Positions 955 through 57,104 of a DNA stretch of 64,000 nucleotides are shown piece after piece. Each line of letters starts with the position of its first letter. The stretch's first letter is position 1. The position numbers and the translations under genes are program-made. Source of the stretch: Candidatus Latescibacterota bacterium (lineage in GTDB: Bacteria; Latescibacterota; UBA2968); contig OZ242010.1 of the NCBI GenBank assembly GCA_965204745.1, positions 1-64,000 on the forward strand, read 5' to 3'. The notes under the pieces are model-generated. The model had not been told where the DNA came from. It ran no database searches and saw only the letters and a program-made list of their open reading frames with translations.

Positions 955-1089
955 TCCGTGGCTATAGGCTTTAATCTATCTTGAGCGACGCAGAGGGTTT
1001 GACCATTGACAATCGAGTCGGTTGGCTTTTGTGTGCCAATCAGCCAAACGGATTTGTTCATTTTTGAAGTCGCACAGGACATACAAACC

Positions 1090-2568
1090 ATGTCTTCAAT
1101 TACTATCTCCAATGCCAATGATCTTTCCGTTATTGATGCTGTCAAACGCATAGCCGAACAACACCGTCCAGAACTCGGCTTTCACGCTCGTCAGGCTTAT
1201 GTGGATAGCCTCAATAAAGGCGAACTTCTCATCGCTCAAAATGATGGCGTTGTGGGCTTTGCACGCTATCACCACAGGCGAGACAACCGGACAACGCTTT
1301 ACGAAATTGCAGTAACTCCTAACGTTCAAAACAAAGGGATCGGGCGTCGGCTGATAGATGCGTTGATCGCCGACTGCCGACGTGTGTCTTCGCGATGCCT
1401 CCGATTATTATGTCCTGTGGAATTGCCAGCAAACCGTTTCTATGAAGCGATTGGTTTCATTCGCTCAACTCGGCGCAGTCGGCTTGGCAGAAGTCGTCCA
1501 TTATACGAGTGGGAATTTCCTGTCCTGCCAAATCGGAAAATTGCGTTTGTGGCATCATTAACCTCAACAGCCTCCGACCTAAAGCAATTGATCCAGATGT
1601 GGGAAAGAGAGGGACCAAATAGAAAGCCATTCGAAAAGTGTATCATCACGCCGCTATTCATCGAGCGCAAATCTTTTGATTATGTCCGGTACATCCATGA
1701 ACACTGGGGCATTGAGGTCATCTTTGACTCCGGCGGATTCTTCGTCCAGCAAGGAAAAATCTCATACGATGAATTATTTGTACGTCTGCTCAATTTTTAT
1801 TCTCAACATAGATGGGCCCAAACGTATGTGCTCCCCGACTTCGTACCAACCTCAAGACAAACATCCGATGAGATAACAGAAAGGGTTTACATTACGGCGT
1901 CTGAGAGCATCAGATTCTTGGGTAGGCTTCCCATTGACTTGCGAGACCGGGCCCTCGGCGTTCTACAGGGGCACAATCCCGAACACCTCAAACACTGTTT
2001 CGACGCATTCATAGAGAGTGGCTTACAACGCATCGGTTTTGGGAGTTTCGATACCACAGGGATCAATGCAGAGATCAACCTGTTGACCGCTCAAACCGAA
2101 CGCCGGCTGGTTTTTGTGCGCGACCTGATTCGACGAAATTTCCTCAATGGAAAAATCGCATCTCCACCTGATCTTCATTTGTTCGGTGTTGGTTCTCCGA
2201 ATATTATCGACCAATTCAAAAACTACTTAGCGACCAGTTACGACAGTTCCGGTTGGCAACGCACCGCGGGATTTGGGAACGTTTACTTGCCTTTTATGGG
2301 GCGCCAGAACGTCAGCCATCGATCAACCGTCCTGATGCTGAATAAAAGCATGAATGCCAAAGAATTTTACGCACAGTGCGAACGCACAAAGCATTCATGT
2401 CCGTTCTGTCGAGATTTCTCAAGGCTTCAAAAAGATCGATTGGTGAGGATGTGGCACAACGCAATCGTTTTTGGTGAGATGATGGATATAACCAATCGCG
2501 TTGAGCGCAGAGAAATCCCAAGAAAAAGAAAATCAATGTCTCGACAGATATCGCGTAACGCATTTTGA
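1090..2568 (+). CDS. GNAT acetyltransferase fused to a tRNA-guanine transglycosylase (TGT/DpdA)-like domain
   Basis: N-terminal GNAT (IAVTPNVQNKGIGRRLI acetyl-CoA loop, ANRFYEAIGF); C-terminal TGT motifs FDSGGF, LPDFVP, VLQG, IGFGS, LHLFGVG, SYDSSGW and a Zn-site-like C..HSCPFC...HN. ATG 1090 preferred over TTG 1006. Confidence 0.8.
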   Translation: MSSITISNANDLSVIDAVKRIAEQHRPELGFHARQAYVDSLNKGELLIAQNDGVVGFARYHHRRDNRTTLYEIAVTPNVQNKGIGRRLIDALIADCRRVSSRCLRLLCPVELPANRFYEAIGFIRSTRRSRLGRSRPLYEWEFPVLPNRKIAFVASLTSTASDLKQLIQMWEREGPNRKPFEKCIITPLFIERKSFDYVRYIHEHWGIEVIFDSGGFFVQQGKISYDELFVRLLNFYSQHRWAQTYVLPDFVPTSRQTSDEITERVYITASESIRFLGRLPIDLRDRALGVLQGHNPEHLKHCFDAFIESGLQRIGFGSFDTTGINAEINLLTAQTERRLVFVRDLIRRNFLNGKIASPPDLHLFGVGSPNIIDQFKNYLATSYDSSGWQRTAGFGNVYLPFMGRQNVSHRSTVLMLNKSMNAKEFYAQCERTKHSCPFCRDFSRLQKDRLVRMWHNAIVFGEMMDITNRVERREIPRKRKSMSRQISRNAF

Positions 2569-2581
2569 TAACGGGGTAACG

Positions 2582-3421
2582 ATGAGATCACATAACCATG
2601 TTTTTCATACGAAACACGACTTCAAGCCAGAACTGGGGTGGGCTACCTTTCAATTATTAGCCGAGATTGGCTCTGATGGCATTTCGGCCCCCAACTTACA
2701 CGCCATCGCAAAGGCAACGGGGTCGCCATTGGCTAAACGGTCGGACTTAAATAAGATCACGACCGCTATGCAGGATGTTGGCTTGACCGAAAAAACGCGA
2801 GGAGGGATTGCGCTTTCCAAAGCGGGAAGGGCCCTTGCGGAGGGACTTGGAGGCTATGAAGCAGGCTTCCGAGCCGCGGTACACTGTCTATACGCTTGGA
2901 AATGGATTTGGGATCGGAATACTCAGACCGCTTCTCCATCATGGAGCTATCGCCAAGTATTAAAACAGATCTTGAACTCTGGATTTACAGGTATTGACTC
3001 GGATGAAATTGTGTTACGGGTCGTCTCTACCGCTGAAAAGAAATTCAATACTGTGAAAGTCTCTTTTAGCCGGTCGAGCGTGAGTGGTGTGACCATGTGG
3101 CTTGAATCTCAAGCATTGCCTCTTGTACTGAAAAAAGGACATCGCCTGATTCTCCAAAATTCTTTGACACCTATGGCAGACGCGATTCGCCTTCATTTGG
3201 CTGCACTATGCGCTTGCTATCGCGGTGAGGCGACTTTGGATGGCGACAACATACAATTGCTGTGGGAGTCTTTTTTGATTCGCACGGATGACCTCGTCGG
3301 TCTATTGTTGGATTTTACACGAGATAGTGACGAATTTCTGTTGACGCCAGCGACACCTAATCGCGTGATTTTCAGGGGATCTGAAGACCCATTTATCGAA
3401 TGGCTGGTTAGATCGGCCTGA
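2582..3421 (+). CDS. Hypothetical protein, possible tandem winged-helix DNA-binding protein
   Basis: ~279-aa ORF tightly packed in the operon; helix-then-wing patterns (MQDVGLTEKTRGGIALSKAGRAL; SRSSVSGVTMWLE...PLV). Confidence 0.6.
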   Translation: MRSHNHVFHTKHDFKPELGWATFQLLAEIGSDGISAPNLHAIAKATGSPLAKRSDLNKITTAMQDVGLTEKTRGGIALSKAGRALAEGLGGYEAGFRAAVHCLYAWKWIWDRNTQTASPSWSYRQVLKQILNSGFTGIDSDEIVLRVVSTAEKKFNTVKVSFSRSSVSGVTMWLESQALPLVLKKGHRLILQNSLTPMADAIRLHLAALCACYRGEATLDGDNIQLLWESFLIRTDDLVGLLLDFTRDSDEFLLTPATPNRVIFRGSEDPFIEWLVRSA

Positions 3422-3478
3422 TTGAAATGGCTGTCGTTGCAAAAAGAGAAATGCGTGTCTTTTGTTCAAGGACGACTT

Positions 3479-6400
3479 ATGAAAAACAATTATGCAGATA
3501 CTTTGCAAATTTTACCTATCGCTGATACTGTCAGTGGATCAGTCGCCCGGGAAAACCCCAAAGAGACGATTGATCATTACAACCGGCTTGCCAGTCAACT
3601 TTGGTTGGCGCCGAAAGTCGGTGTTGTCGCAGAATCGGTGCTTTCAAACGTGCAACGGGGACACACCACATGGGGAAGTCTGAGTGGACCGTATGGGTTT
3701 GGCAAAACAGCAACCGCGATTGCCTTATGGGCTCATGCAAAAAACGCTGACTTTTTATCCATTCCCCCTTTGTCGTGTACCAACTTCGATGAATTGGCTT
3801 ATGGGATTGCCACACTTGCCGGCGTGCAGTATCCAAAAATTAAAAAGCAGATTGACAAATTATTTCGGGATGTCTTCATAAAAGAATTGAATCCCATGGT
3901 GCAGACCGACGCGAAGCGGTACTCTGTTTCCTCTCGAACAGTCCGACAAATCTATCGAGATAAGCTCTCTAATGGTCAGTTCACATTAGACACTCGCCCC
4001 CACCGAACCGTCGAATTTCTGGCGAAATTGGGACAACTTGCAACGGAATCTTCAAAGGGCTTGGTGATTGTCCTCGATGAACTTCAGCAATTGCTCGGCC
4101 CTCTTGATGCCCGCGCCATCGTCCAATTTCGAGAATTTGTCTGGGGGATGCGTACTGAGCGTTCGTCCTGTGGTCTGATTCTAATTATGGACTCACTGCT
4201 CGAAGCGAGATTGGCACGCTGGGCAGCGGACATTCTTCATCGAATTCGTGAAAATGGCCCTGCGCTACAGCTAACCAATATCTATACCCGTGAGTTTCCA
4301 TTATGGCTATGGAATCAATTAACCAACAGAAAAAGAGGAGACCTGTCTTTCCAATCAGAGGCATTGACGGATAACGTCCTTTCGTCCCTCGGTCAACTCG
4401 TTGAGCGACCCGACCTTGCCAATGGGCCGCGCACCGTTGTGGATGTCTTTTTTCGGGCAGCAGTTCACCATAAAAAAACAGGCTCGAGCTACGATATATC
4501 TCACCTCGTTGACGATGTCCATCAAGGCCAATTTCGTTACTTCGGGGAAGGCGCGACAATACAAAATGCCCTAACCCAAATCCTGTCGGACGAGTGGATT
4601 AAAGAAGATGATGGACGTAGGACACTGGTAAAAACGCTCGCGGCTTTTCCGCAGGGATGTTCTCGACAAACACTTCAACACTACATCCCCCACAAAGAGC
4701 AACTCGAGACCGCAAGGTCGGAGTTGTTTGGCCCATTGCTCGTTGAACTTTCTGAAGGTTTGGCCTTGGAACCATTGCAGCAGGTTCGGCGGACTCGCAC
4801 CCATTGGGAGCAAATTCTGTCGCACTGCTGGGAGACATTGCCCGCGCTTGATGCTTTAGCCACGCGCGCGCCAGATATGATTTATCGGGTTCTCATTCCA
4901 AGGCTGTTTCCCAAGGGAACTCCTACTTGGCCTGCCTGGGAACAGCTCTCTGACGAATCAAGTGCTGTATTGACGGGTTGGCATATACGCCAAGGAACGT
5001 TTGACGATGCTTACCCAAAAAGAGAAATTGCCCTGTGTATAACAGACAAAGAACCGGAATCGTGGCCGCAGGATATGGATGTTTGCATTGCGTTCGTTTG
5101 CGATGTCAGTACAGACGCCAATATGACCCCCACGGCGAAATTGCTGGACACCAGTGAAGGCTGTTTCATTTTGATGAGGTTGCCGGTACTAAAACCTTTG
5201 ACAGATCGAATTCCTACAGATTTGCAACGTTACAAAAAATACATTCAGCCGGAGCCGTTTCGACCCGTAACAATCCTGACCGCCCTGCATGACCTTGAGG
5301 CATTTCTCGGAGATCTGATCGGCAATTCCGACGTTATCGATACGCCCTCTTCAAAAAAAGAACAGTCTGAAATGAAGCGGCTTGTGGCATTTGTCGATAT
5401 TGCGGTAGATTTTATCCTTCGAGAACTTTTAGGCGGGCATGTGGATGTAGGAAAGGGGCTATCGATCTCCTTGCGAGGCCCGGAACTACTGCGTGCCCTC
5501 TTTACCCAAGGATGCCATCGCCGATTTCCACAATACCAAACATTGATGGGAACGGCAAAATGGCAGGATATTTTATTCCATTATCGAGAGGGAATACGCT
5601 CGGATTGGTTGAGTCCAGCACAACGTCAGGGAGAAAAAGAAATCGTCATGCCTAAGGCAGAGATGTATGAATCGTTGTTCGGTCAACTGAGTACAGCGGC
5701 AGGTGACAGTTTCATCAAAAAACTGGGGCCGTTCGTCGAAGCAAAGAAAAAGCCAAAATCATTTTCGCTTCGTCTGACGATGCACCCCGCCGAAGTTGCT
5801 CTGATTGATTATTTGAAGGGACTTTCCGGATATCGATCCATTCCTTTCGATGCCGCTGTGGAATTTCTACGACATCGGGGTTATGTACAAACAGAAACAG
5901 AAGAAATTATCAAAATTCTCGTTGCGAGAGAATGCCTGACAAGAGATTCCAATGCGTATATCCGATTCATTCCAAACGCAGGGATCGAACGCGCCCGTAT
6001 GAAAGAAAAAATCGCGGAGATAAACCGCGAACTTTTCCGCCTTGAAGTAACTGACAATCTCGATTTTCTTTCCACAGAGGCATCCATACCCAATTTACAG
6101 GCACACCTTGACCTTATTAAAGCACGTTTGAAAGAACAGATTGAAGAACAGATTCAAGAACTGGCAAATAGAGTCACTTCGCTTCACGACTTGATAGGGA
6201 CAGTACGCGCGTCCACCGTTCCCCAAAATTGGGCAACTTCACATTTGAGCACACATCTAACAGGCGTAGCGACTAAGCTTCGCCAAACCCAAGATCCCCT
6301 GCTAAAAACCTTACGCAAGGAGTTGAAACGGGTTGAGAAAGAGCTCGATTTCTCATCCCGTCCTAAAGATGTGGGATGGGCTATTGCCCAGAGGAAAAAG

Positions 6401-7207
6401 CGGGTCTCATTTTCTCGATCCTTTCAGAAGCTACGGGATCGTGTGACGCTATTTGAAACGCGAGTGAAAGCACTCGCGTTTTGGGAAGTACTAAACAATC
6501 AACTTCGCTCAACCGATGCACTATGTACAAAGATATCCGAGGCAGAGCCTGCTCTGGTAATGGCTTTGAGTCAACTCGTTGAAGAATTTAAGGAGCGATT
6601 TGCCACCGATTCATGGGGGCCGTTGTTCGCTTCGAGCGCGTTTTCAAAGAAATTAGGAGCAGTACAATCCGATGTCCAAGGACTGCTTTACAGTTGCGTC
6701 CAAACGTTTAATCGGGAATTAGAAATAATCAGGAACCGATTCAAACCGCTATTACCAGCGGCACAACCACCGAAGTTCGACATATTGGGAGAAGGCGGTC
6801 AGGGGCACGATTCAATTCAGGAGCCTTTCCAGAAATTGTACCAATGGGCATGGAATGGTTTTCGAGAAGTTGCTAAGGATTGCAAGCAAAAAAAACAAAG
6901 TGGTATCCCATGGCGCGATCCAGACAACAAACGAGAAAACTGGAAAAAATTAGAAGATGAGGTTGACTTAAGGCTTCAAGGAGCCGATGGCACGCTCGAT
7001 TTTGAAACGGTTCAGCGTATAGGAATGAAGGTCTTGTTAATGCAACGCGGTTTCACTTCGGTAGAAGACATTGAAGCCATCCCAGGTTTATACGATAATC
7101 CGGATAGCCCTCCTGACTTTAAAAAATTAGAGCAGTTATTTGGACGAGGACAAATCGCGATTCGGGTCGATCTAAAAAGTCTTGAGGGGACAAAAGCTCA
7201 TTCTTGA
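3479..7207 (+). CDS. Large P-loop ATPase with C-terminal helical/coiled-coil region
   Basis: Walker A GPYGFGKT, Walker B VIVLDE, NGPRTV sensor-like motif; heptad-rich C-terminal third; AAGGA before ATG 3479. Confidence 0.8.
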   Translation: MKNNYADTLQILPIADTVSGSVARENPKETIDHYNRLASQLWLAPKVGVVAESVLSNVQRGHTTWGSLSGPYGFGKTATAIALWAHAKNADFLSIPPLSCTNFDELAYGIATLAGVQYPKIKKQIDKLFRDVFIKELNPMVQTDAKRYSVSSRTVRQIYRDKLSNGQFTLDTRPHRTVEFLAKLGQLATESSKGLVIVLDELQQLLGPLDARAIVQFREFVWGMRTERSSCGLILIMDSLLEARLARWAADILHRIRENGPALQLTNIYTREFPLWLWNQLTNRKRGDLSFQSEALTDNVLSSLGQLVERPDLANGPRTVVDVFFRAAVHHKKTGSSYDISHLVDDVHQGQFRYFGEGATIQNALTQILSDEWIKEDDGRRTLVKTLAAFPQGCSRQTLQHYIPHKEQLETARSELFGPLLVELSEGLALEPLQQVRRTRTHWEQILSHCWETLPALDALATRAPDMIYRVLIPRLFPKGTPTWPAWEQLSDESSAVLTGWHIRQGTFDDAYPKREIALCITDKEPESWPQDMDVCIAFVCDVSTDANMTPTAKLLDTSEGCFILMRLPVLKPLTDRIPTDLQRYKKYIQPEPFRPVTILTALHDLEAFLGDLIGNSDVIDTPSSKKEQSEMKRLVAFVDIAVDFILRELLGGHVDVGKGLSISLRGPELLRALFTQGCHRRFPQYQTLMGTAKWQDILFHYREGIRSDWLSPAQRQGEKEIVMPKAEMYESLFGQLSTAAGDSFIKKLGPFVEAKKKPKSFSLRLTMHPAEVALIDYLKGLSGYRSIPFDAAVEFLRHRGYVQTETEEIIKILVARECLTRDSNAYIRFIPNAGIERARMKEKIAEINRELFRLEVTDNLDFLSTEASIPNLQAHLDLIKARLKEQIEEQIQELANRVTSLHDLIGTVRASTVPQNWATSHLSTHLTGVATKLRQTQDPLLKTLRKELKRVEKELDFSSRPKDVGWAIAQRKKRVSFSRSFQKLRDRVTLFETRVKALAFWEVLNNQLRSTDALCTKISEAEPALVMALSQLVEEFKERFATDSWGPLFASSAFSKKLGAVQSDVQGLLYSCVQTFNRELEIIRNRFKPLLPAAQPPKFDILGEGGQGHDSIQEPFQKLYQWAWNGFREVAKDCKQKKQSGIPWRDPDNKRENWKKLEDEVDLRLQGADGTLDFETVQRIGMKVLLMQRGFTSVEDIEAIPGLYDNPDSPPDFKKLEQLFGRGQIAIRVDLKSLEGTKAHS

Positions 7208-7231
7208 ATTTTGGCAAACGCGAGGATAAAA

Positions 7232-8920
7232 ATGGCTAACTATGATGAATGGAACGAGGCAATTACCGAATACTTCGTCAGCGGTGTGCCCAACGGTGCG
7301 ACCATCTACCTGAGTGTGGACGATGGCGCGTTGATGGATATCAGCACCCGCTTTGAACAATCGGAGGCGAATCCTGTGAATTGGGTTGATGACTTTACTA
7401 CAGCAGTTCGCTCCAAGTGTTTGATCGGCAACCGAGTTTATCTGGAAAGCATTTCAGGTTACCAGCCCAAAGGGCAACCGCGTTGCGTCGCCTTTCTCGC
7501 GGCAATGGTCCTCGCTGCTCATCGCATGGTTGCTGAATATACGGAAGATGAAGCCATCGCCCAGATCAATTATTTTACACGTTTGCGTCAGGTCCTCGGG
7601 TTGCCGGATGAAGAAGGTGGCCGTCCTGATGGTTTGTCAATAGGGCTTGAGGAAAATCTGTGGCAATCTTGGAACTGGTGGTTGATTCGGAAGGGTTGGC
7701 TTCCGTCGGCTGAACCTGGACAGAGCAACTACGACAAGTACATCAACTATCCCCTCTCTCAAGCGTTGCTCCGTGAAGGAGATGGAGAATCTGTGGAACG
7801 CCTCTTCCGAGAGAGCGAAAAATCAGGTCAATTAAGTCGTGTTTGGGACAGAGATACCGTAGGTTCTTGGATACGAAGCCAAGATCTCCGTTCAAGGTAT
7901 CTCAGAGAGTTGGTTCGAGAAAGCGACCGTTATGATGCGATTACCGATGCCATCTACGACGTTTATATCTCTATTGACTGGGATCAAACTTCGCCAGAGC
8001 GTTTGACTGTGCAACGCCGCCTGACAGCAGGATTATATCGGGTGGAAGATTTTATCACGGGAACCGTTGATTATCGGCTGTATCCACGCCAACCAAGGCA
8101 ACTTCAAAATAAGCCCTTGGAAGTGATTCAAAATGGTCACACACATCTCTTGCGCGAAGAGCGTCCAGGGTGGTTTCTGCCTTTATGGTGTGCCGATCCC
8201 GCCGGTGGCGTGTCTTACGAAGTGCGAGGTCATCCCCAAATCGAGGAACTTATCTTGCCCGAACGGAAATTCTGGATTCTGATTCGCGACCCAGAGAACG
8301 AGGCATCGGGGGTTTTTGCGGGTTGGGGACACCCTGGGCTCGGCGAAACATTCCTTCTGCTATGCCGAAAAGAGTATGCGGACCAAATGGAAATTTTCAA
8401 GCGGGAAGCCTTGCTCAAATGGGATCATGATTTCCCAATAAATGATGACTGGGTCGAATATCGGGAATGCATGATTTTATCTCCAAGTTGGGAGGGCATC
8501 ATTCCGCAACACCGAGATCTCTACGATGCCCTAAAGCCGAGCGTATCGGCGACAATTTCCTTGAAAGGCGGGCTACGAGTACCGAATCAGAGTGGATATT
8601 TGGAAGGATACGCGCCTGAAATGACAATCATTGCCTTTGATGACAGCGTCGAGTTAAAGCTACTGGACCTATCTCGTCCCGCCGAACCGATCATGGATGA
8701 GATCGTCAAGACGAATCAGCCAATAAATTACCCCGACCTTGGTTTCGGAGACTATCTCGTTGAAGCCTATAATTTAGGGAAACTCGCAACCCGGCGCGGG
8801 TTCCGAATCGCGCCATGGGATTCACTGGATTGTCGGCAACCCAAAGAGGCATTTTCCGTAGTGGTTGGAAAATTTAGACTACAGGGGGCTATCATCAAAA
8901 CGAGTGAGTCTAAAGGATAA
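7232..8920 (+). CDS. Hypothetical protein (putative Druantia-like accessory subunit)
   Basis: ~560-aa ORF with GAGGA RBS, operonic with the helicase; no catalytic motif recognised. Confidence 0.65.
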   Translation: MANYDEWNEAITEYFVSGVPNGATIYLSVDDGALMDISTRFEQSEANPVNWVDDFTTAVRSKCLIGNRVYLESISGYQPKGQPRCVAFLAAMVLAAHRMVAEYTEDEAIAQINYFTRLRQVLGLPDEEGGRPDGLSIGLEENLWQSWNWWLIRKGWLPSAEPGQSNYDKYINYPLSQALLREGDGESVERLFRESEKSGQLSRVWDRDTVGSWIRSQDLRSRYLRELVRESDRYDAITDAIYDVYISIDWDQTSPERLTVQRRLTAGLYRVEDFITGTVDYRLYPRQPRQLQNKPLEVIQNGHTHLLREERPGWFLPLWCADPAGGVSYEVRGHPQIEELILPERKFWILIRDPENEASGVFAGWGHPGLGETFLLLCRKEYADQMEIFKREALLKWDHDFPINDDWVEYRECMILSPSWEGIIPQHRDLYDALKPSVSATISLKGGLRVPNQSGYLEGYAPEMTIIAFDDSVELKLLDLSRPAEPIMDEIVKTNQPINYPDLGFGDYLVEAYNLGKLATRRGFRIAPWDSLDCRQPKEAFSVVVGKFRLQGAIIKTSESKG

Positions 8921-8934
8921 TGGGAGGAGTTAAG

Positions 8935-10251
8935 ATGCCAAGGCGATATGTTGCCGTAAACACACAGGGCAAGCCGACGCGGATTTTTGACCGCGTCAGC
9001 GAGGCAGTGCGAGCGGAGAACCTGACGCGGGTGATACCCGCCGTGAAATTTGAAAGGAGACCGCGAGGACAATTTTATGTTTTTCTGGCTGTCGAAGGTA
9101 CAGAGGCGACGCAAATTCCCGATGATGTACGAGCCGTTCTCCAGCGGGCAGGTTTAAGGGGGCACCCTCTTTGGCCAATAGAGCCTGCCGAAATTAAATC
9201 AATGACAGGTCCGACAGAACTTGAAACCCACAGTCTCAACGCACTCACTTACAAATCTTTATGGGCTGATGATCCCGGTGATCCATTTGACTTATCTGCT
9301 ACACCCTCCGATGAGAAAGACCCCGGCGATCCTTCCCTTGGCGAACGCTATGATCAATTACTTTATTGGCTTTCTGCCAATGCCGAAGGGACTTGGCAAA
9401 CTTTCGCACGGGTCTGCCATGTCTTGCAGTTGGCTGACGATACGAACCAGACGCGCTCAATTTTCAGACATTTGACCCTCCTCGGTTACATCGAAAGCTC
9501 GGGGGATGGGCAGAAGTGGTCGATTTGTCCAACGACTTTGGTGCAATGTGCGGCGGATCCAGATGGGTATTTTCTGACTGGACAACGGACGCCAAAGTTG
9601 ATCGAACAATTTAACGAACGCTGGAAGGTGGAAAGTATCCCGCAACATCAAGGCCCGTCGCGTGTAAAAGTCCATAGTGTTCTTTCTCTGGATGCCTCTG
9701 ACAACGGTTTCTGCCTTGCGCGTGCAGGAGTTGCTTCAGTTCTGTTGGCACAGTCGCTACCCGATCTCGAAGGTTGGACAGACACCCTTACGACCATTGA
9801 TCGCATCAGCACCGCACACGACAACATCGAAATCTGGAATGGCAGTCGATTTGTTCCGTGTGATACGTTCTACGAAAGAAATGGGCAATATGTCGGTGAA
9901 TCGGGCATGTATTGCTTAACACGCAACGAGAAGGCGAATCCCTATCGCCGAGTCCTTTACTTTGACCAACCCAATCAGCGATGGTTGAGAGGAGATTGGT
10001 ATGGCCTCTGTTTCCTCTCATACCATGCCATCGGACGGGATTTTGAAGCGTTATGCGATTCCCGCACAAACGATATGCTGATCCCCAAAGATGAGCGTTG
10101 GCCTTTGCTGTATGAACGGCCATTGGTTTTGGCGTCCGGCATATTACCGTCTCGGGCTGAAAATCCAAAGTGGCTCAGATATTCAGGCGTTTCTAGCGAA
10201 TTGATTCAAGTGCTAAGCAAAAAACTGAATGTCTCAATCAGGGAGATTTAA
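8935..10251 (+). CDS. Hypothetical protein (putative Druantia-like accessory subunit) with possible NusG-N-like N-terminus
   Basis: GGAGGAG RBS; central wHTH-like segment (FRHLTLLGYIE); C-terminal PLLYERPLVLASGILP; stop abuts the helicase start. Confidence 0.65.
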   Translation: MPRRYVAVNTQGKPTRIFDRVSEAVRAENLTRVIPAVKFERRPRGQFYVFLAVEGTEATQIPDDVRAVLQRAGLRGHPLWPIEPAEIKSMTGPTELETHSLNALTYKSLWADDPGDPFDLSATPSDEKDPGDPSLGERYDQLLYWLSANAEGTWQTFARVCHVLQLADDTNQTRSIFRHLTLLGYIESSGDGQKWSICPTTLVQCAADPDGYFLTGQRTPKLIEQFNERWKVESIPQHQGPSRVKVHSVLSLDASDNGFCLARAGVASVLLAQSLPDLEGWTDTLTTIDRISTAHDNIEIWNGSRFVPCDTFYERNGQYVGESGMYCLTRNEKANPYRRVLYFDQPNQRWLRGDWYGLCFLSYHAIGRDFEALCDSRTNDMLIPKDERWPLLYERPLVLASGILPSRAENPKWLRYSGVSSELIQVLSKKLNVSIREI

Positions 10252-10252
10252 C

Positions 10253-13200
10253 ATGCATGATCTCGTTGGTGCTTATACACGCATGAGCCAAGTGTATCAA
10301 TGGTATATTGAAAGTGCCTTTCCATTGAGATATGAAGCCCTTGGCAACGAACGGGAACAACTTCTGTCTCGACCGGAAACCCTGTCTCAACCACCACTTC
10401 TGGAAACCATTCCCGTCTATCCATCATCGGGTTACAATCTGGCAGATGCAAGCCAACAGTTGCCATTCGATTATCGAGACCTTCAACACCTCGCTCAAGC
10501 GTTGTTTCCGCCCGATATTCAACTCTGGGACCATCAATGGCAGAGTCTCCAAGAAGTTCTGCTAAACAAAAAAGACATCGTAGTGACTACGGGGACTGGA
10601 TCGGGAAAGACAGAATGTTTTCTGTTGCCACTTTTGGCAGAATTGGCTCGGGACTCTGCCTCTTGGCCGGGCTGTCCGAATCCATCAGAGGAACGGAAGT
10701 GGTGGAATAATGATGGCGGGTCATGGAACGGTCAATGGTCACATACAGAAAGGAAGGGAGAAGAACTCCACGCAGTTCGCGCAATTATTCTTTACCCGCT
10801 CAACGCACTTGTAGAAGACCAACTACGCCGCTTGCGAAGTACGCTTGATTCTGAAGATGTCCATCGATGGCTGAATACCCATCGCGGCGGAAACCGAATC
10901 CTGTTTGGCAGGTACACGGGAGAGACGCCTGTACCCGGTGACCGAGGGAATGCGAATGCGATGAATCGCCTACGCAATCGCTTGCGAGAGATGGCAGATA
11001 CCAGTGAGGAAATCCGTCACCTCTTGGGCGCATCCCCGAACATGGATCGGGATATCCAATACCACTTCCCGAATATTGATGGCGGCGAGATGTGGTCTCG
11101 ATGGGATATGCAGGATACGCCCCCTGATATTCTCATCACCAACTATAGCATGTTAAACATCATGTTGATGCGTAGCGTTGAATCGGGCATCTTTGACCGC
11201 ACCCAAAAATGGCTTGCCGGCGACCCAACGCGCAAACTCTTTCTCGTTATTGACGAACTGCACGCCTATCGCGGGACCTCCGGTACAGAAGTGGCCTACA
11301 TTTTGCGCTTGCTTCTCGACCGAATAGGCTTGAATCCCAATTCAGACCAGCTCGCTATTTTGGCAACTTCGGCAAGTGTCACCGATACCTCTGAATCCCG
11401 AACTTTTTTGCGAGAATTTTTTGGTCGAGATCGATTTGAGATCGTCTCGGGGCAACAAACGCCCCCTTCACCAGGTGCGCGGATCAGGATGGCACCGTTC
11501 CAAAACGCCTTTGAGCAATTCGCTCGGACGGTCCAGCCGAATCCACTTGACCCAATGAGTCCGCCCGATCCTGAATCGGCAAAAAATCAAGGCGCGATGG
11601 CAGACTTGGCGAGCGCACTGGGGCAATCGCCTCCCCCAAATGAAGCGACAGAAGTTGTTTTGGCAAATGCACTGAAAAAGCAGAATGCCCCGGATGCCAT
11701 CCGAGATGCTTGTGTCGCTGTCAACCAAAGTATTCGGCCCTCAAAGGTACCCGACTTGGACGATGTCCTCTTCCCCAATGCTCGTCCGAAAGACCAAGCG
11801 GCTTCTGACGCCATGAGAGGGTTGTTGCTCGCACTTGGTATGAGCAAGGAGTCGGCGACAGGCCCCTCGCCGCAACCCGTGCGGGGCCATATCTTTTTTC
11901 ACAATCTACAAAACCTTTGGGCCTGCTCAAATCCCAACTGTACCAATGCTCATTGTGATACAACGCAACGTCGAGCATCCCACTCGGGTATTGCCATTCC
12001 CGTTGGTGCATTGCACGAAAAACATCGCCTGACTTGCTCCTGTGGCGGTAGAGTACTCGACTTCATCGTCTGCGAAGTGTGCGGGGAAATTTTCCTCGGA
12101 GGTTTTAGAGCACGACGACAGGTGGGGACGCAACGAGTTGAGATTCTAACGGCGGATCAACCGGATTTAGAAAATATGCCAGACCGCGTGTCGGTTGCAC
12201 AAAGATACGGTGAATATGCTGTCTTTTGGCCGTTAAATGAAGCCATCCCTTGGACAACCCAGCCTCAAGATCGAGACTATCAAGCCAACCGTATAAAGAG
12301 AAATTGGACGCGAGCTCGCCTCAATGTGTTTTCGGGAATACTCCAACAGAATACTGCGCCGTTAAACTCCGGTGAGGTTGCAGGTTGGCTATATCGCATA
12401 ACGGGGGACCATCCAGCTGAATCGGCTATGCCCCACAAATGTCCGCGGTGTGATGCAGACTATCGTCGCCGCAAACGCATCCCTACGCCGTTACGCAACC
12501 ATAGAACCGGCTTCCAGAAGGCATGTCAGGTGATTGCCAGTTCGCTTTGTCGAGAGATGCCAGAAAAGCTGGACAATAGGCCATCGCGGAAACTGGTTAT
12601 TTTTTCGGACAGCCGCCAAGACGCAGCAAAACTGGCGGCGGGCATGGAACGCGATCACTTCCGCGACATGATTCGTTTGGCATTGATCGATGCTCTTAAT
12701 GCTCATTGGCGTCGGTTTGAGTCGTATGTCCGAAGAACTGCTTCGCATACCAAACGCGCTTGGAAAACTCACTCTATCAATCCACAGTTGCATGCCGTTG
12801 CCTCTGATTCCTCCAATCCCATGACGAAGCATCACAGGTAAAATTCCAATCAGCCCATCAGGGGCTTGCCTTAGAGATGATGAGTTGGTTTGGAAATTTA
12901 CCACCTGCAAATCAGAATAACTTCGATACATTGATGCGTATGATGTAGGATATCCTGGGCGGATTCCGCTCGCAGAACTACGATGGATTATCCGCGACCT
13001 AATGCTCGGTCTCGGCACGAATCCGGGAGGGACATCACATCGGCTATTACAATACCGAGTGGAACGTGAATATCATGATTGGTATGAATGCTACGATTGG
13101 CAATCTGGCATGCCACAAGAAAAAACCGATCTGGTACCGCAAGCATCTCGATTGTTGAATCAAATCGATTCTTCCTTGATGTCCGAGTTGATGTACGCAC

Positions 13201-15962
13201 TATTTCCCCATGTTGCCCGAACTCTGGAGAGCCTTGGGCAAGGATGGGTGACGTATCAGCCGGGCGGGAATCCTACAGATCGAGTCGTCCAAGCCACAGA
13301 TGCAGTCATTCGGCTTTTGGGAACTCGTCGCGCTCATCGCTATGCAGAATACTTTGAACCGGGCGGTTCAACCGAATTACCTGCATTCGCTAAACGTTAC
13401 CTCGCCAATGTGGGTGTTCCGCATACAACTGTGGAGCAACAGTTGGCCCACCAATCCCAAGTCGGAGTTGGAGGTCGTAATTACGTAGGGCTAGATCCGG
13501 AGCATTTGTATCTCTGGTTGCCACCTAATGAAGATGCTCAAGGATTTCGCCCGGGATGGAGATGTCCAACTTGCAACGGCTTCTACCTTCATCCTGCCGG
13601 GGACGTATGTCCGGCATGTGAGAACGTTTCTCTTGAACCGAGCACCACACAACGCGCTCCCTTTGATTACTACCTCTACCTTTCGGAAAAATCGGGTCGG
13701 CCATTTCGGTTCCATTGCGAGGAATTAACCGGACAAACCGATTCTCCTGACCGACCCCGACGACAACGACGATTTCAGGAGATCTTCGTACAAGGCGACA
13801 TTCCACTGGTTCATGGCATTGATCTGCTCAGTGTCACCACGACAATGGAAGCCGGGGTTGATATTGGCGCACTATCGGCAGTCATGATGGCGAATATGCC
13901 TCCGAGACGATTTAATTATCAACAGCGTGTCGGTCGCGCCGGGCGACGCGGCACGGGGGTTTCTCTTGCAGTAACGTTTTGCAGGGGGAGAAGTCACGAT
14001 GACTACTACTATCTCCGGACAGAAGAGATGACAGGGGACCCGCCATCGCACCCTTATGTCGATATGGACCGCGAACCCATTTTTCGCCGCGTTATGGTGA
14101 AGGAGATCTTGCGTCAAGCATTTGAGGCTTTACCACCTAATGTCCGCGAAACCGCAATGGAACGGGCTGGCGAGCGATTTCGAGAAAGTGTTCATGGAGA
14201 ATTTGGGCCTCCAAAGGGGTGGCCTATTGCGACCACACACATACAAAATTGGCTGAATGCCTCTGAGACTCAACAGGTGCTTGAAAACGTGTATAATGCG
14301 TTGCGTGCCGGAACACCTTGGGATCGAGACCCTGACCTTGGAGCGGATTTCTGTCGGCAAATGACAGCATTTTTGCAGAACGAGTTGGTCGCAAAGCTAA
14401 CTGAAATCGTCAACGATCCGAGATATACGCAAGAGGCCCTGAGCGAACAATTGGCAAATGCAGGTTTGCTTCCGATGTTTGGGTTTCCGACTCGGACCCG
14501 TCTTTTATATACCCGTTGGCCATTACGGGGCAATCCATGGCCTCCTGAGCACGGGATAGTAGATCGCAATTTAGACATTGCGATCAGCCAGTTTGCCCCA
14601 GGGTCTGAGACCGTGAAAGACAAAGCAGTGCATACCGCATGCGGGGTTGTCGAATTGTATCCGCAAGGAAATGGCGTTGGTTCACGTCCGGGATTCTTCC
14701 CCGATTTTAGCATGGGTAATTCATCTCCGATTGGATTGTGCGATAACTGCCAAGCGGTGGCTAATCTGGAAGCAACAGCCGATCCTGCACTTGGAGGGCA
14801 AGAACCGAGGCCAATTCAGTGTCCAGTGTGTCGGCATGAAACATTACGGCCCATCGATGCGCGTGAACCAAAGGGATTTTTCACGGATTTAGACTCGGAT
14901 GATTTTGAAGGATCGTTTGAATGGAATCCACGGTCAACGCGGCCTACATTGAGCATCCAAAGCCAAGGGGTACAACCGAAGTTTGTTGGCAACGCCAATG
15001 TATCTGCTTTGGAAGATGAAATTATATCGGTCAACGACAATGGAGGCGAAGGCGGTTTTGACTTTCGAGCATCGGCAACGGTTTCTGGGCGAAACCGACC
15101 TGGAGCATACGCAGTGGAACCTCGGAGTAATAGCAATGTCTCCGTTGCTGGCACTACCTATCGCATCGCCCTCCTTTCCAGATCTCGGACTGATATTCTA
15201 TTGGTCGATATGCAACAGTGGCCCGATGGGTTGTTCGCAGATCCAACTCGGGTTGAAGGCCGCGCTGCTTGGTATTCTCTCGCGTTCTTCTTGCGAATAG
15301 CTGCTGCTTCAGAACTCGATATCGATCCAACCGAACTCGATGCTGGCTTTCGATCTCTTCCTCACAAGGGCATACCAATAGGTCAAGCCTTTCTCTCTGA
15401 CAAACTCGAAAACGGGGCTGGATACTGTCGTTGGTTTGGAGAACCCGATCACTTTCAAAAATTGTTAGCCCAAGCAGATCCCAAAATTTCAGAAAGTCTT
15501 GCCGATGTATGGATAGGACCATCGCACGAGTGTGATACGTCCTGCAATGCATGCCTCAGAGACTTCTACAATCTACCTTACCACGGGCTACTTGACTGGC
15601 GGCTTGCTCTTGACATGGCACGCCTTGCAACGGTATCAACTGCCACCGTTGACCTCGTTTCCCCTTGGGGCAAACATGACAATCCATGGCGCACGCTCCT
15701 ACGAGGAACGGATGCACCAGTGCCCGCCACGATGCAGCGACTTGGGTATGGGCAACCCATCAATTTCGCTGGTCTGCAAGGTTATGTTCACAGTTCGAGG
15801 CAACAGATCTTGATTGAACGCCATCCGCTGTGGACAGACGATCATCCGGTATATTGTGAGGCACTTAAAGAAGTACAACAGCGGTATTCGAAGTATCCAC
15901 ATGACTCGATCCGTCCGCTGAACCCATTCCGGGCACTCCGACGGCCGGCGGATTATGTATGA
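10253..15962 (+). CDS. Giant SF2 DEAD/DEAH helicase with Zn-ribbons and DUF1998 (DruE/YprA-like); two -1 frameshifts near 12820 and 12945
   Basis: LWDHQ Q-motif, TGTGSGKT, YPLNALVEDQ, ITNYSML, DELH, TSAS, FSDSRQDAA in 10253-12841; TTTMEAGVDIG, QQRVGRAGRR, LSDKLENGAGY, CDTSCNACL in 13002-15962; a bridging open frame links the two halves. Confidence 0.88.
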
Positions 15963-16033
15963 GAAGTCATGGGGTGATCCACAGCTATAGCGGCTGTCTC
16001 GGTTGCGACTGAACCAAAACAACGAGGTCTCTC

Positions 16034-17440: not shown

Positions 17441-18671
17441 TCTGCGTGGCAAGACAGTAGCATTGGCTTCGTCGGGTGGGTTGGACAGTTGCACGGTGAC
17501 GAAATGGTTGGCGGATCGCGGCGTGCAGGTGGTCAGCCTAACCGCGGATATCGGGCAACCCGATGAGGTGAATATCGACGATATTCGCAAACGCATGCTG
17601 GCCTGCGGCGCCAAAGAAGCCGTGTTGATCGATCTCAAAACCGATCTGGCAGACGCGGGCATTGCAATGCTGATTGGGCAAACGCGCTACGAAGGCGGGT
17701 ATTGGAACACGACGGGCATGGCGCGCTACGTCACCACGCGGGGGTTGTTGGAGGAAATGAATCGGCGCGACATCGAGGTGCTCGCGCACGGCGCGACTGG
17801 CCGAGGCAACGACCAAGTGCGGTTTCAACTCGTCGCGAATATGTGCCAGCCGGGGGTTGCGGTCTATGCCCCATGGCGGGATCAGGCGTTTCTCGACATG
17901 TTTGGCGGGCGCAAGGAAATGATCGACTTTTGCAATGCGTACAATTTGCCGATCACCGCGACCTACAAAAAACCCTATTCCACGGACGCCAACTTTTTGG
18001 GGCTCACGCACGAGGCCGGCAAACTCGAATCCTTGGATGTCGCCGCGGATTTTATCGAACCGGGCATGGGCGTGTTGCCCCATCAGGCGCCGGACAAGCC
18101 CGAATTATTTCGCGTCAGGCTCAACGCGGGACGCCCGGTGCAACTCAATGGCGCGGATGTCGATGCCGTGACCGCGATCTTGCGGGCCAATGAAATCGGC
18201 GGGCGAAACGGCGTGGGCATTGGCATCCACACGGTGGAAAACCGCTTTGTGGGCATCAAGTCGCGCGGCGTGTACGAAAGCCCGGGCCTGTGCTTGCTCG
18301 GCGCGTGTTACGAATTTTTGATCCAGCAGGTTTTGGACCGAAGGGCGCGAAAGTTTTACGACTCGATTTCCACTGCCCTCGCCGAACAAATCTATCAGGG
18401 CTATTACTGCGATTTGGCAACGCAGATGATGCACGGCGCGCTCGCCCCCGTGGCGAAATTGCTGACGGGCACCATAACAGTCGCCGCCTATAAAGGCACG
18501 GTCTCGTTCCAGTCCTCGCAAGACGTGCCGCACTCCCTGTATTCCGAAGAAACCGCCTCGATGGAAGATGTGGGCGATTACGACCACCGCGATTCCGAGG
18601 GCTTTTTGAATGTCCTCGGCGTAGGCGCGAAAGCCCAACACGCGGCGGGACAGATCGCAATAAAGGGATAA
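17427..18671 (+). CDS. argG: Argininosuccinate synthase
   Basis: SGGLDS PP-loop, HGATGRGNDQVRF, YSTDAN, ENRFVGIKSRGVYESPG. Confidence 0.95.
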   Translation: MTLNDLRGKTVALASSGGLDSCTVTKWLADRGVQVVSLTADIGQPDEVNIDDIRKRMLACGAKEAVLIDLKTDLADAGIAMLIGQTRYEGGYWNTTGMARYVTTRGLLEEMNRRDIEVLAHGATGRGNDQVRFQLVANMCQPGVAVYAPWRDQAFLDMFGGRKEMIDFCNAYNLPITATYKKPYSTDANFLGLTHEAGKLESLDVAADFIEPGMGVLPHQAPDKPELFRVRLNAGRPVQLNGADVDAVTAILRANEIGGRNGVGIGIHTVENRFVGIKSRGVYESPGLCLLGACYEFLIQQVLDRRARKFYDSISTALAEQIYQGYYCDLATQMMHGALAPVAKLLTGTITVAAYKGTVSFQSSQDVPHSLYSEETASMEDVGDYDHRDSEGFLNVLGVGAKAQHAAGQIAIKG

Positions 18672-34427: not shown

Positions 34428-36170
34428 TTGGAACGTGTCCCACTTCGGCATTACGCCGCCCTCCTAATAAGGTATCTTCGCCCGCATTGGAAGCGCGTGG
34501 TTTGGTTGGGCGTTTTCATGGTCACGGGCATTGGCCTCAATCTGATCAATCCCCAAATCGTCCGATATTTTATCGACACGGCGCAGGCAGATGGGCCCGT
34601 GCAAAACCTCATCTGGGCTGGCGTTGCGTTTCTCGCCCTAGGCATCGTGCGGCAAGGCGTGCAAATCGCGAGTTCGTACCTCGGGCAAGACGTGGGCTGG
34701 CGCGCGACGAATCAGATGCGGAACAATTTGGCGCACCACTGCCTCAACTTGGACATGGGCTTTCACCATGAACACGCCCCGGGCGAGATGATCGAGCGCG
34801 TTGACGGGGATACGATGGCCCTGGCCAATTTCTTTTCGCAATTCGTCATTCAGGTGATCGGCAGTTCGTTTTTTTTGCTCGGGGTTCTCGCCTTGGTGTT
34901 CCGCGAGGACTGGCGCGTGGGCGCGGCCCTGACGGGTTTTTCGATGCTCGCCTTCGTCGTTTTTAATCTCACGCGCAATATTGCCGTGCCCATTTACACC
35001 CGCGAGCGCGAGCGTTATGCGCGCCTGTACGGGTTTATCGAAGAGCGATTGATCGGCATCGAGGATATTCGCACCAATGGCGCGGGCGAGTACACGCTGA
35101 ATCGGTTTTACGAGGTCAACCAAGGCGTGTTTGACCGGGTGAAGAAATCCGAGTTTATGAGCGAGGGGTTGCGCGCAATTACCGGCATCGTGTTCGCGCT
35201 GGGTTACGCGCTCGCCATGGGCATGGGGATCTGGCTTTACGAGGAGGGCACGTTCACCATAGGCGCGGTGTTTCTCGTGTTTCACTACACGTCGATGTTG
35301 CGCGAACCGCTTTTTCAAATCAGCCAGCAGATCAATGATTTGCAACGCGCCACAGCCGGGCTAAAACGCATCGAGGAGTTGCACCGCATTCAGACGCGGA
35401 TTCGGGATGGCCGGGAAAAATTGGCCGCGGGCAAGGCACTCGGCTTGGGGTTTGACCATGTGCATTTTGCGTACCATCCGGGGGACCCGGTGCTTCGGGA
35501 CGTTTCCTTCGCGCTGGCGCCGGGCAAGACCCTGGGCCTGTTGGGGCGCACGGGCAGCGGCAAGACCACGATGACGCGCTTGCTCTTTCGGCTTTACGAT
35601 GTTCAGCGCGGGCAGATTCGCATTGGGGATCAGAATATCCAGAATATCCGCTTGGCCGACCTGCGGCAACACGTGGGCATGGTGACGCAGGATGTGCAGG
35701 TTTTCAACGCGAGTGTGCGCGACAATCTCACGCTTTTTCGGCCGGGGGTGTCGGATGAAAAGATCATCGGCATTTTGGATGACTTGGGCTTGGGCGCGTG
35801 GTACGCGGCTTTGGCGGATGGGTTGGATACCGAACTCATGGCGAGCAGCTTGTCCGCAGGCGAGGCGCAGTTGCTGGCATTTGCCCGGGTATTTCTCAAG
35901 GACCCGGGCTTGGTCATTTTGGACGAACCCTCGTCGCGGCTCGACCCGGCGACCGAGCAGCAGATCAACCGCGCCGTGGAACGGTTGTTGCGAGACCGCA
36001 CGGGGATCATCATCGCCCATCGCTTGGATACGGTCGAGCGCGTGGACGATATTTTGATTTTGGACGCGGGACAGATTCGGGAATTTGGCCCGCGCGCTAC
36101 ACTTCTTGCGAACCCAAACTCGAGGTTTTCACACTTGCTCAACGCGGGCTTGGAGGAATGGATCGCATGA
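34428..36170 (+). CDS. ABC exporter, TMD+NBD subunit 1
   Basis: [24 protein letters not shown]. Confidence 0.93.
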
Positions 36171-49898: not shown

Positions 49899-50120
49899 AT
49901 GGAATGTCATATCTGCGGAGCTAATTTGGAGCCTGTTGTGACCGATTTGCCTTTTAAGGTGAGCGATGAGAAAATTGTGATCGTGGAAGACTTGCCCGTT
50001 CACCAATGTAGCCAGTGCCGCGAATTTTTGTTGGAAGATCGGGTGATGGCACGCGTCGAAACCATTCTCGAAACAACCGGTGTTGCGACGAAGTTGGAGG
50101 TCGTCAAGTACGCCGCATGA
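49899..50120 (+). CDS. YgiT/MqsA-type zinc-finger protein
   Basis: CHICG...IVIVEDLPVHQCSQCRE. Confidence 0.82.
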   Translation: MECHICGANLEPVVTDLPFKVSDEKIVIVEDLPVHQCSQCREFLLEDRVMARVETILETTGVATKLEVVKYAA

Positions 50121-50158
50121 GTGTATCATCGGACGCAACAACGGAAAGGAGAGGGCGA
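50093..50158 (+). repeat. 66-bp direct repeat, left copy
   Basis: 63/66 identical to 54755-54820. Confidence 0.93.
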
Positions 50159-50225
50159 CTCAAGTCATCGACGTTGCGAACGATTTGCACGCAATCGGGA
50201 ATTTCGCGTGATGATTTTTTGACAG
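50159..50225 (+). pseudogene. C-terminal remnant of a HicA-like toxin
   Basis: LKSSTLRTICTQSGISRDDFL resembles HicA C-termini; no N-terminal half. Confidence 0.5.
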
Positions 50226-50234
50226 GAGGTCAAC

Positions 50235-52169: not shown

Positions 52170-52170
52170 G

Positions 52171-54749: not shown

Positions 54750-54754
54750 TCTAT

Positions 54755-54820
54755 GTTGGAGGTCGTCAAGTACGCCGCGTGAGTGTATCATCGGGCGCGA
54801 CAACGGAAAGGAGAGGGCGA
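54755..54820 (+). repeat. 66-bp direct repeat, right copy
   Basis: 63/66 identical to 50093-50158. Confidence 0.93.
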
Positions 54821-54920
54821 TGACGAGGCAGGCGTATTTGGCGGAGATTAGCCGACGCGGGAGATGGTGGAGACACGGACAGTTTCGGCACGCTCAAGAA
54901 AGTGCGGCGATTGGAAATGA

Positions 54921-56971: not shown

Positions 56972-57104
56972 AATTGACTCACATGATGGGAAACTGCAAA
57001 ATTCTGAATGTAGATTTGTGCAAAATATAATATCAAATGCTACGCTGTGCAAATGGGCAATACGCAGTTGCAACGATCCATTGCCTTACAGATAGGAGGA
57101 TGCG

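Follow-up and report, generated by a model that had tools for sequence, protein, structure and literature searches.

A GNAT-TGT fusion protein at the head of a Druantia type IV operon, a candidate enzyme for DNA self-marking with an acylated 7-deazaguanine

The stretch of DNA analysed here (the window) comprises the first 64,000 nucleotides of contig OZ242010.1 (assembly GCA_965204745.1), from a Candidatus Latescibacterota bacterium. Near its start, a single gene encodes a GNAT acetyltransferase domain joined to a TGT-like barrel, and this gene is the first of an operon that carries Druantia type IV. Our preferred reading, to which we give a probability of roughly 0.5, is that GNAT-TGT is the enzyme of a DNA self-marking module: its TGT-like part would insert a host-made 7-deazaguanine, its GNAT would acylate that base, and the module would here serve Druantia type IV. 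The gene and the layout of its product are as follows.

1090..2568, + strand: GNAT-TGT fusion, 492 amino acids, from the ATG at 1090 to the stop at 2568 (translation)
Protein layout: GNAT at about residues 1-145, a linker, then TGT-like barrel and zinc subdomain at about residues 150-473

The gene is intact and is the sole copy of its family in the host genome. A database protein that is 99% identical to GNAT-TGT and spans 100% of the open reading frame (ORF) is also 492 amino acids long, and we thus took the ATG at 1090 as the start, in preference to the TTG found farther upstream at 1006. Three Pfam GNAT models matched within residues 30-130, all above their cut-offs: PF00583 Acetyltransf_1 (residues 30-123, E 8e-14, 52.3 bits for a cut-off of 20.7), PF13508 Acetyltransf_7 (51.1 bits, cut-off 27) and PF13673 Acetyltransf_10 (41.5 bits, cut-off 23.6). 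No Pfam model matched the remainder of the sequence. These matches agree with an earlier annotation made from the letters of the window and their translations (hereafter the sequence-only reading), which had described the GNAT domain as complete. The domain carries the CoA-binding Q-x-x-G-x-G motif in the form VQNKGIG, and its segment NRFYEAIGF aligned with ALYESLGF of RimI; by Foldseek and sequence comparison, its nearest solved relatives are Ard1 (4pv6) and RimI (5isv), both protein N-terminal acetyltransferases.

All the TGT motifs listed by the sequence-only reading were found in the translation, and in order: FDSGGF (residues 211-217), LPDFVP (248-253), LQG (292-294), GFGS (316-319), HLFGVG (363-368), YDSS (384-387), HSCPFC (435-440) and WHN (455-457). 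When 52 homologues were aligned, D213, D250, H363, G366, D385 and H435 were invariant, and the zinc-site residues C437, C440 and H456 were conserved in at least 90% of the sequences. The site is thus of the H/C/C/H type, the first zinc ligand being a His in GNAT-TGT and a Cys in canonical TGT. The protein stops right after the zinc subdomain and does not have the C-terminal tRNA-binding domains of the archaeal enzyme (arcTGT).

An AlphaFold2 model built on this 52-homologue alignment had a mean pLDDT of 91.5 and a pTM of 0.83. With Foldseek, residues ~148-476 of the model matched arcTGT (1iq8, E 3.6e-10), DpdA (7ui4, E 3e-9) and both bacterial and human TGT. VIA-align gave a Z of 25.1 to arcTGT 1iq8_A over residues 148-476 (274 aligned, root-mean-square deviation 2.7 A) and a Z of ~24.5 to the Z. 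mobilis TGT. Structure prediction, the check that the sequence-only reading had named for the barrel, therefore came out in its favour, with arcTGT, DpdA and bacterial TGT all matched. A profile of the family compared with solved proteins placed DpdA 7ui4, which acts on DNA, best (E 3.2e-6), followed by arcTGT (4.5e-5), Cap10 9ntn (0.01) and the Thermotoga TGT (0.07), and the PADLOC DpdA model weakly matched GNAT-TGT with an E of 3.4e-5. An hhalign comparison of the family with the host's own Tgt, at a probability of 4.8, aligned only the nucleophile and zinc regions (SFDSS on MFDCV and GHxCPFC on CACYAC) and serves as a register check only. Altogether, the model confirmed a predicted TGT-superfamily barrel with a C-terminal zinc subdomain, fused to a GNAT, and the enzyme looks intact, with the TGT fold, the Asp triad and the zinc site conserved.

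The operon extends from 1090 to 15962, and all its genes are co-directional (+), with gaps or overlaps of 7, 0, 3, -1 and -23 nucleotides between successive genes. Behind GNAT-TGT it contains the following.

2576..3421, + strand: SspB/BrxA-like protein (orf281), 281 amino acids, three winged-helix-like units (AlphaFold2 model, fold match)
3422..7207, + strand: BrxC-like P-loop ATPase, 1261 amino acids as listed (weak AAA_16/AAA_22 Pfam matches)
7211..8920, + strand: DruF, 569 amino acids (PADLOC DruF4, E 1.1e-24)
8920..10251, + strand: DruL, 443 amino acids (PADLOC DruL4, E 1.1e-12)
10229..12841, + strand: N-terminal part of DruE, ORF of 870 amino acids (PADLOC DruE2/DruE4, E 4e-242 and 6e-239, model 1-859 and 3-801)
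13002..15962, + strand: C-terminal part of DruE, ORF of 986 amino acids in another frame (PADLOC DruE4, E 4e-238, model 855-1818)

According to PADLOC, the combination of DruE, DruF and DruL is Druantia type IV (PMC8565338), and the three are found together in this operon, DruE as two ORFs. Scans of the operon's seven ORFs against Pfam, NCBIfam and PADLOC gave no match to HerA, DUF87 or FtsK, none to PglZ, and none to a QueC-like Cap9 or a CD-NTase cyclase.

We then looked at the two proteins that separate GNAT-TGT from the Druantia genes. For orf281, nothing was found in Pfam, NCBIfam or PADLOC, and Pfam DUF4007 was unmatched even at E<=10. Its AlphaFold2 model (pLDDT 94, pTM 0.92) had SspB 6juf as the top Foldseek match (E 2.9e-4), and VIA-align, run against 48,161 representative chains, also ranked SspB first (6juf_B, Z 14.8, 249 aligned, root-mean-square deviation 3.9), followed by BrxA 7zge (Z 10.4) and single-domain MarR-type proteins (Z 8-9). 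The model suggests that orf281 is a putative DNA-binding or site-selecting partner. A complex prediction for GNAT-TGT with orf281 scored 0.00 in a run that had no controls, and counts neither for nor against binding. The ATPase, whose true start may lie some codons downstream of 3422, has a long C-terminal coiled-coil region; its Walker A residues G92, G94, K95 and T96, together with D219 and E220, are invariant in 32 family sequences. Pfam BrxC_BrxD matched 8 of these 32 members (best E 1.2e-5) and DUF6079 none. Protein-atlas similarity to BrxC/DUF6079 clusters was 0.89-0.96, which we take as a lead only, and the family profile found nothing among PDB sequences except coiled-coil look-alikes (apolipoproteins and designed bundles).

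SspB is described as the DUF4007 nickase and SspC as the ATPase of SspABCD phosphorothioation, and the BrxC of type 4 BREX is described as an SspC homologue (bioRxiv 10.1101/2024.06.03.597175). As modelled, the folds of the window's partner proteins match this proven DNA-modification chassis. GNAT-TGT, orf281 and the ATPase form a constant triad (see the counts below), which therefore resembles the modification chassis of Ssp and BREX with the sulfur or methyl enzyme swapped for GNAT-TGT. The sequence-only reading, which had not seen the Druantia type IV operon or its Ssp/BREX-like partners, had offered as its alternative a toxin-like effector acting on tRNA. The operon context points instead to DNA self-marking and argues against a stand-alone tRNA toxin.

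To what extent this arrangement is shared was judged from the homologues. At E<=1e-3 there were 574 of them, and the best 120 were almost all full-length fusions with 53-99% identity; judging from these sequences the fusion is not a product of chance, and the sequence-only reading, for which absence of the fusion in homologues would have been fatal, holds on this point. An exhaustive search of cluster representatives returned 901 proteins, including stand-alone TGT-like proteins (~310-350 amino acids) and stand-alone GNATs. We gathered 18 genome, 3 viral and 80 metagenome loci and labelled their ORFs by phmmer against the window's proteins; the resulting counts are lower bounds, many contigs being only 1-5 kb long. 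Among 100 TGT-like loci, an orf281 homologue was present in 70, an ATPase homologue in 67 and a GNAT in 63. Druantia genes were found in 35 and HerA in 13, never both together, and 21 loci showed the ATPase without either effector arm. The order GNAT-TGT, orf281, ATPase, then DruF, DruL or DruE was seen in 15 of the 18 genome loci; locus L024 has the same gene set in a permuted order. The HerA-type loci additionally hold a small P-loop NTPase and a separate GNAT (e.g. L100 and L067), the HerA of L100 matching Pfam DUF87 with an E of 1e-14. Their gene content agrees with that of the system which PMC12839542 names BREX-Related Capture (BRC).

A maximum-likelihood tree of 88 TGT domains, from which fragments of less than 270 residues and duplicate sequences were left out, separated two clades with an SH-aLRT of 99. 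The first, with 38 rows, comprised 30 rows of HerA-type context (meaning HerA or one of its usual neighbours), 7 of unknown context and 1 linked to Druantia. The second, with 50 rows, comprised 33 linked to Druantia, 16 unknown and 1 of HerA type on a long branch. All 26 fused proteins (26/26) fell into one clade with a support of 100, so that the fused/split character needs a single change on the tree; on this phylogeny the fusion arose once, inside the Druantia-linked clade.

Two further features of the relatives deserve mention. Many have a gene of ~660 codons between the ATPase and DruF that the window's operon does not have (e.g. L018 16447-18420, L023 16043-18034 and L025 10849-12849); its product weakly matches nSTAND5, UvrD and ResIII, and has a PADLOC NERD+UvrD match. 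Moreover, in split-form loci linked to Druantia (L035, L036, L042 and L053-L057) the BrxC-like ATPase occurs as a pair of paralogs, of which one is placed convergently or in tandem; beside the second copy no SspB-like homologue was visible in L035, L036 and L042, where an ORF of 270 amino acids follows that copy.

The operon behaves as a mobile, horizontally inserted defence island. Its flanks are housekeeping genes, with a type II HAD hydrolase upstream and a sulfatase and argininosuccinate synthase downstream, and it is inserted between the HAD hydrolase and sulfatase genes (window 955-16033). In 17 of 20 congeners the spacing between these two genes is 0.6-2 kb, compared with 15 kb here; for the remaining 3 the sulfatase query found nothing. 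The operon is absent from 19 of the 20, and among 168 genomes of the phylum just 2 have DruL, the host genome and one congener. The spacing in the congeners and the rarity of DruL thus indicate an inserted island of ~15 kb. The first 16 kb of the window have a GC content of 0.47-0.51, lower than most of the remainder (0.51-0.61). A second stretch of low GC (0.47-0.51, amid 0.57-0.60) lies at window 50001-58000 and could be another island.

We also looked at whether a deazaguanine would be at hand. The host genome holds a canonical tgt, queC, two adjacent QueF-domain matches, one PTPS/queD and folE2; FolE type I is absent and FolE2 present. The search of the host genome for que genes, suggested by the sequence-only reading, therefore succeeded for queC, queF, queD and folE2, and with these genes both preQ0 and preQ1 should be available. 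That reading had also stated that the window itself is free of such genes, which is right for queC, queF, queD/PTPS and folE2, all located elsewhere in the genome; queE was not searched. One candidate for a linked queC, a weak QueC match at window 17469-17639, was rejected: this ORF is an argininosuccinate synthase (Pfam E 2e-44 and 3e-35) that has only the PP-loop in common. Both queC and queF were present in 9 of 9 other host genomes tested, and control genomes had queF in 7 of 14 and queC in 13 of 14.

Five loci have queD directly upstream of GNAT-TGT, co-directional and either 20-40 nucleotides away or overlapping: L018, L019 and L020, which are Acidobacteriota genomes, and the metagenome contigs L072 and L080. 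These queD products score 107-114 bits against a QueD equivalog cut-off of 89.25, and the three genomes have one or two further PTPS copies elsewhere. What precedes queD is different in each of the three (genes of a type IV pilus, unrelated enzymes, a transposase), and queD thus appears to belong to the island. In a sixth locus, L047, the split GNAT and TGT genes have queC next to them in divergent orientation. Taken together, the que genes of the host, the 9/9 other hosts and the extra queD upstream in five loci make a deazaguanine substrate plausible.

In L018, from an Acidobacteria metagenome-assembled genome, a degraded queC fragment with internal stops was seen just upstream of the island queD, and a complete queC is found another 9 kb upstream, beyond genes of a type IV pilus (sites 9183-9323, 163-945 and 9601-9963). 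As for the host's canonical tgt, ~4 kb separate it from the end of the genome's single contig, and it would be near the window start if this contig is circular. The two ORFs concerned, tgt and the one preceding it, occupy the sites G000:C1 5475778-5476929 and 5477173-5478300 (L001 82-1233 and 1477-2604); the preceding ORF has the motifs DPFCGRGT and TSPPY and presumably resembles a DNA methyltransferase.

The GNAT and TGT-like genes also occur as a pair in a virus. The Thermocrinis Great Boiling Spring virus (BK013347.1) has overlapping split genes at 36079-37256 (L027 3953-5130), encoding a GNAT of 135 amino acids (35% identity to the GNAT domain, E 2e-24) and a TGT-like protein of 257 amino acids (30% identity, E 5e-47). 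The pair lies directly upstream of genes for a sliding clamp, a helicase, a nuclease and PolA. No que genes are annotated in this record, and the paper that describes the virus does not discuss the GNAT or TGT-like genes. A tblastn search with the TGT domain matched a single record among 50,697 phage records, which was not P4, and IMG/VR gave relatives in 3 loci, one of them the Thermocrinis virus itself.

The fold, the conserved residues, the synteny, the single origin of the fusion, the inserted island, the queD adjacency and the viral pair rest on computation, whereas DNA as the substrate, the kind of base, the acceptor of the acyl group and the connection with restriction are inferences. 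From these observations we propose the following course of events. The winged-helix protein and the ATPase would find and open sites in the cell's own DNA, where the TGT barrel would swap a guanine for a host-made 7-deazaguanine, preQ1 or preQ0, with D385 as the likely nucleophile, D213 as the likely acid/base and D250, QG and GFG probably holding the base. The fused GNAT would acylate this base from acyl-CoA, either after or before insertion, and the most likely acceptor would be the aminomethyl amine of preQ1. DruF, DruL and DruE would then act on DNA that does not bear the mark. Phages have N-formyl- and N-methyl-dPreQ1, in which the aminomethyl group on a DNA base is acylated or alkylated. 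A phage GNAT, PaMx11 gp48, acetylates 5-aminomethyl-dU in DNA to 5-acetylaminomethyl-dU (PMC8989533), and the N-acetyl-preQ1 suggested by the sequence-only reading is therefore chemically reasonable. A bolder form of the proposal, which we regard as speculative and rather doubtful, is that Druantia type IV, of this clade at least, is modification-dependent and that its self mark is N-acylated 7-aminomethyl-7-deazaguanine in the chromosome, made by GNAT-TGT as a single polypeptide under the guidance of the Ssp-like winged-helix/ATPase chassis.

The state of DruE bears on whether the system works in this genome. Compared with the DruE of L024 (1917 amino acids), that of the window covers residues 1-853 and then, from window position 12951 and in a different frame, residues 905-1916. 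The stretch between the two parts (12842-13001) has stops in all three frames, and ~50 residues are left without a counterpart. In three relatives, the closest included, one ORF of 1903-1918 amino acids encodes the whole of DruE, and in two others the gene is broken. Related strains, represented by contigs from sponge metagenomes, differ from the window by several small indels at 12741-12955; on one contig of 6.2 kb they sum to +2 letters, and by arithmetic both DruE halves would therefore fall in one frame. Decay specific to this strain or a fault in the assembly may explain the break, which leaves the GNAT-TGT gene untouched.

A number of points weigh against our preferred reading. With DruE interrupted, the system may be inactive in this genome. 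Pfam TGT PF01702, a model that recovers the host's canonical tgt at 535.7 bits, was not matched by GNAT-TGT at E<=0.01, and the DpdA model NCBIfam NF041059 matched residues 255-388 only (E 4.6e-6, 25.7 bits for a cut-off of 200). Many homologues have H for Q in the QG base-binding motif, and the TGT-like protein of the Thermocrinis virus terminates before the zinc subdomain. The kinship of the GNAT domain to Ard1 and RimI would suit a protein acceptor as well as a base. The ATPase can be assigned to BrxC/SspC only weakly from its matches, and no DpdB or DpdC homologue was found among the seven neighbouring proteins scanned. As to the deazaguanine, no more than 6 of 100 loci have queD or queC adjacent, and the five with queD, all in one part of the fused clade, amount to one or two evolutionary events; the presence of queC and queF in 9/9 hosts is weak evidence, since both genes are common in bacteria. 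Finally, the function of the family is a prediction, as is that of the BRC version (PMC12839542).

Some of these points would fit other explanations, and an unlikely one is that the substrate is a protein. The TGT-like domain would then transfer a base of the deazaguanine type to one of the system's proteins, or the GNAT would acetylate such a protein (e.g. the ATPase or DruE), as a regulatory switch like that of Cap10 on the cyclase of type IV CBASS or of the proposed TIM-B regulators. Cap10 9ntn is indeed a detectable relative of the family profile (E 0.01), the closest solved GNATs Ard1 4pv6 and RimI 5isv acetylate protein N-termini, and a 2026 preprint puts forward TIM-B domains, which are related to TGT, as negative regulators of the effectors linked to them, GNATs included (10.64898/2026.10.19.760177). 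However, DpdA and arcTGT outscore Cap10 against the same profile, the operon has neither the QueC-like Cap9 partner nor a cyclase, and the zinc subdomain is retained, as in nucleic-acid enzymes. Membership of the TIM-B family was rejected, its Pfam model PF14350 not being matched by GNAT-TGT at E<=0.01. Moreover, what constantly accompanies the enzyme is a DNA-binding fold like that of SspB and an ATPase like BrxC, and in the virus the pair comes without a partner protein of this kind. Distinctly unlikely, too, is a barrel that removes or flips a base without inserting a deazaguanine, either as a restriction glycosylase that damages incoming DNA or as a detector that probes it for modified guanines, the GNAT being separately regulatory. 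TGT chemistry begins with base excision through a covalent Asp intermediate, which makes such an activity conceivable, and most loci have no dedicated gene for base synthesis in the operon. Yet the base-binding D250 and the motifs around it are conserved as in enzymes that exchange bases, the presence of an adjacent queD or queC in 6 loci is difficult to account for unless a deazaguanine is the substrate, and the constant partnership with a GNAT, by a single fusion or else as a neighbour, speaks for a small molecule or base that both use as substrate.

We consider it very improbable that tRNA, whether of the host or of a phage, is what the fusion modifies through guanine exchange and acetylation, either as a toxin in abortive infection or in a housekeeping role. 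Each of the two folds includes members that act on tRNA, and the top structural matches are bacterial and archaeal TGTs; but the genome already holds a canonical tgt (the 535.7-bit match), and GNAT-TGT is part of a horizontally inserted defence operon missing from 19/20 congeners. Its partners are proteins of DNA systems (SspB-like, BrxC-like and the DruE helicase), it does not have the C-terminal tRNA-binding domains of the arcTGT type, and the viral pair is located in a replication module. The least probable of the alternatives is that the GNAT acetylates the exocyclic amine of a normal DNA base, with the TGT-like barrel serving for base flipping or DNA binding only. GNATs that acetylate nucleic acids are known, namely NAT10 (cited in PMC8989533) and PaMx11 gp48, but the invariant Asp residues at the catalytic positions and the intact zinc site in 52 sequences argue for a working transglycosylase, and the queD linkage also speaks against this alternative.

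Self/non-self discrimination in Druantia is poorly understood, and the module of GNAT-TGT, SspB-like protein and BrxC-like ATPase is a concrete and testable candidate for it. If an acylated deazaguanine is indeed the product, this would be a new DNA base and the first acylated deazapurine in DNA. The Ssp/BREX-type targeting chassis would then be a plug-in platform for unrelated chemistries (sulfur, methyl, deazaguanine), and the modification chassis would have been reused with one effector arm exchanged for another (Ssp, BREX, HerA, Druantia). For biochemistry, simple constructs are offered by the fusion as one polypeptide, by the split forms and by the two-gene viral version.

A GNAT/TGT apparatus for DNA modification has already been published for BRC, as a prediction (PMC12839542), and the new base hypermodification put forward by the sequence-only reading is thus upheld only in part: a deazaguanine substrate is plausible, and the idea of such a module was in print. 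What appears to be new is that the module is linked to Druantia type IV, that its fused forms make up one clade of single origin, that the partner folds like SspB, that queD can be adjacent and that a virus carries the pair. We found no literature linking the GNAT-TGT module to Druantia, supplementary tables being outside the search. The word 'Druantia' is absent from the main text of PMC12839542, whose supplements, also outside the search, could list Druantia-linked loci, and in the YprA-helicase preprint 10.1101/2025.09.15.676423 the words GNAT, TGT, acetyltransferase and transglycosylase are all absent.

BRC (NAR 2026) is among the closest known systems. The paper counts a GNAT and a TGT, 'occasionally fused', among seven components, proposes them as the apparatus that marks self DNA, and states that HerA/FtsK is kept in all 45 taxa (PMC12839542). 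BRC and the window share homologues of the GNAT and TGT-like genes next to a protein that resembles DUF4007/BrxA; the ATPase of the window is a putative further counterpart, of the BrxC/DUF6079 kind. In contrast, HerA is missing from the seven ORFs of the window's operon, where the effector arm is Druantia type IV instead, and the Druantia-linked and HerA-linked TGT forms belong to separate clades of the tree. In the Dpd system, which puts 7-deazaguanine into bacterial DNA, an enzyme of TGT fold likewise belongs to a defence island that has a helicase of the YprA type, and an ATPase partner is expected there; DruE weakly matches DpdJ models, and among solved proteins DpdA comes closest to the family profile by sequence. 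However, the partners in the window are SspB-like and BrxC-like, neither DpdB (ParB-like) nor DpdC was matched among the neighbours, and DpdA has no GNAT domain, whereas GNAT-TGT has one.

With SspABCD and type 4 BREX, the window has in common an SspB-like triple winged-helix protein and a large P-loop ATPase that adjoin the modifying enzyme, in a module that feeds a separate restriction arm. The enzyme of the chemistry differs: here it is GNAT-TGT, with no PAPS-reductase-like SspD/BrxP and no cysteine desulfurase, and the ATPase family of the window type is unmatched by Pfam DUF6079 (0/32). PaMx11 gp48 acylates an aminomethyl group on a DNA base and is thereby a precedent for the GNAT step, but it acts on another base, belongs to another GNAT lineage and is not fused to an amine-installing enzyme. 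As for Druantia itself, type II pairs DruF and DruE with DruM, a modification gene. DruM is a methylase. DruF, DruL and DruE of type IV are all present in the window, in that order; the available text of PMC8565338 describes type IV without a modification gene, whereas the window links it to a three-gene GNAT-TGT module.

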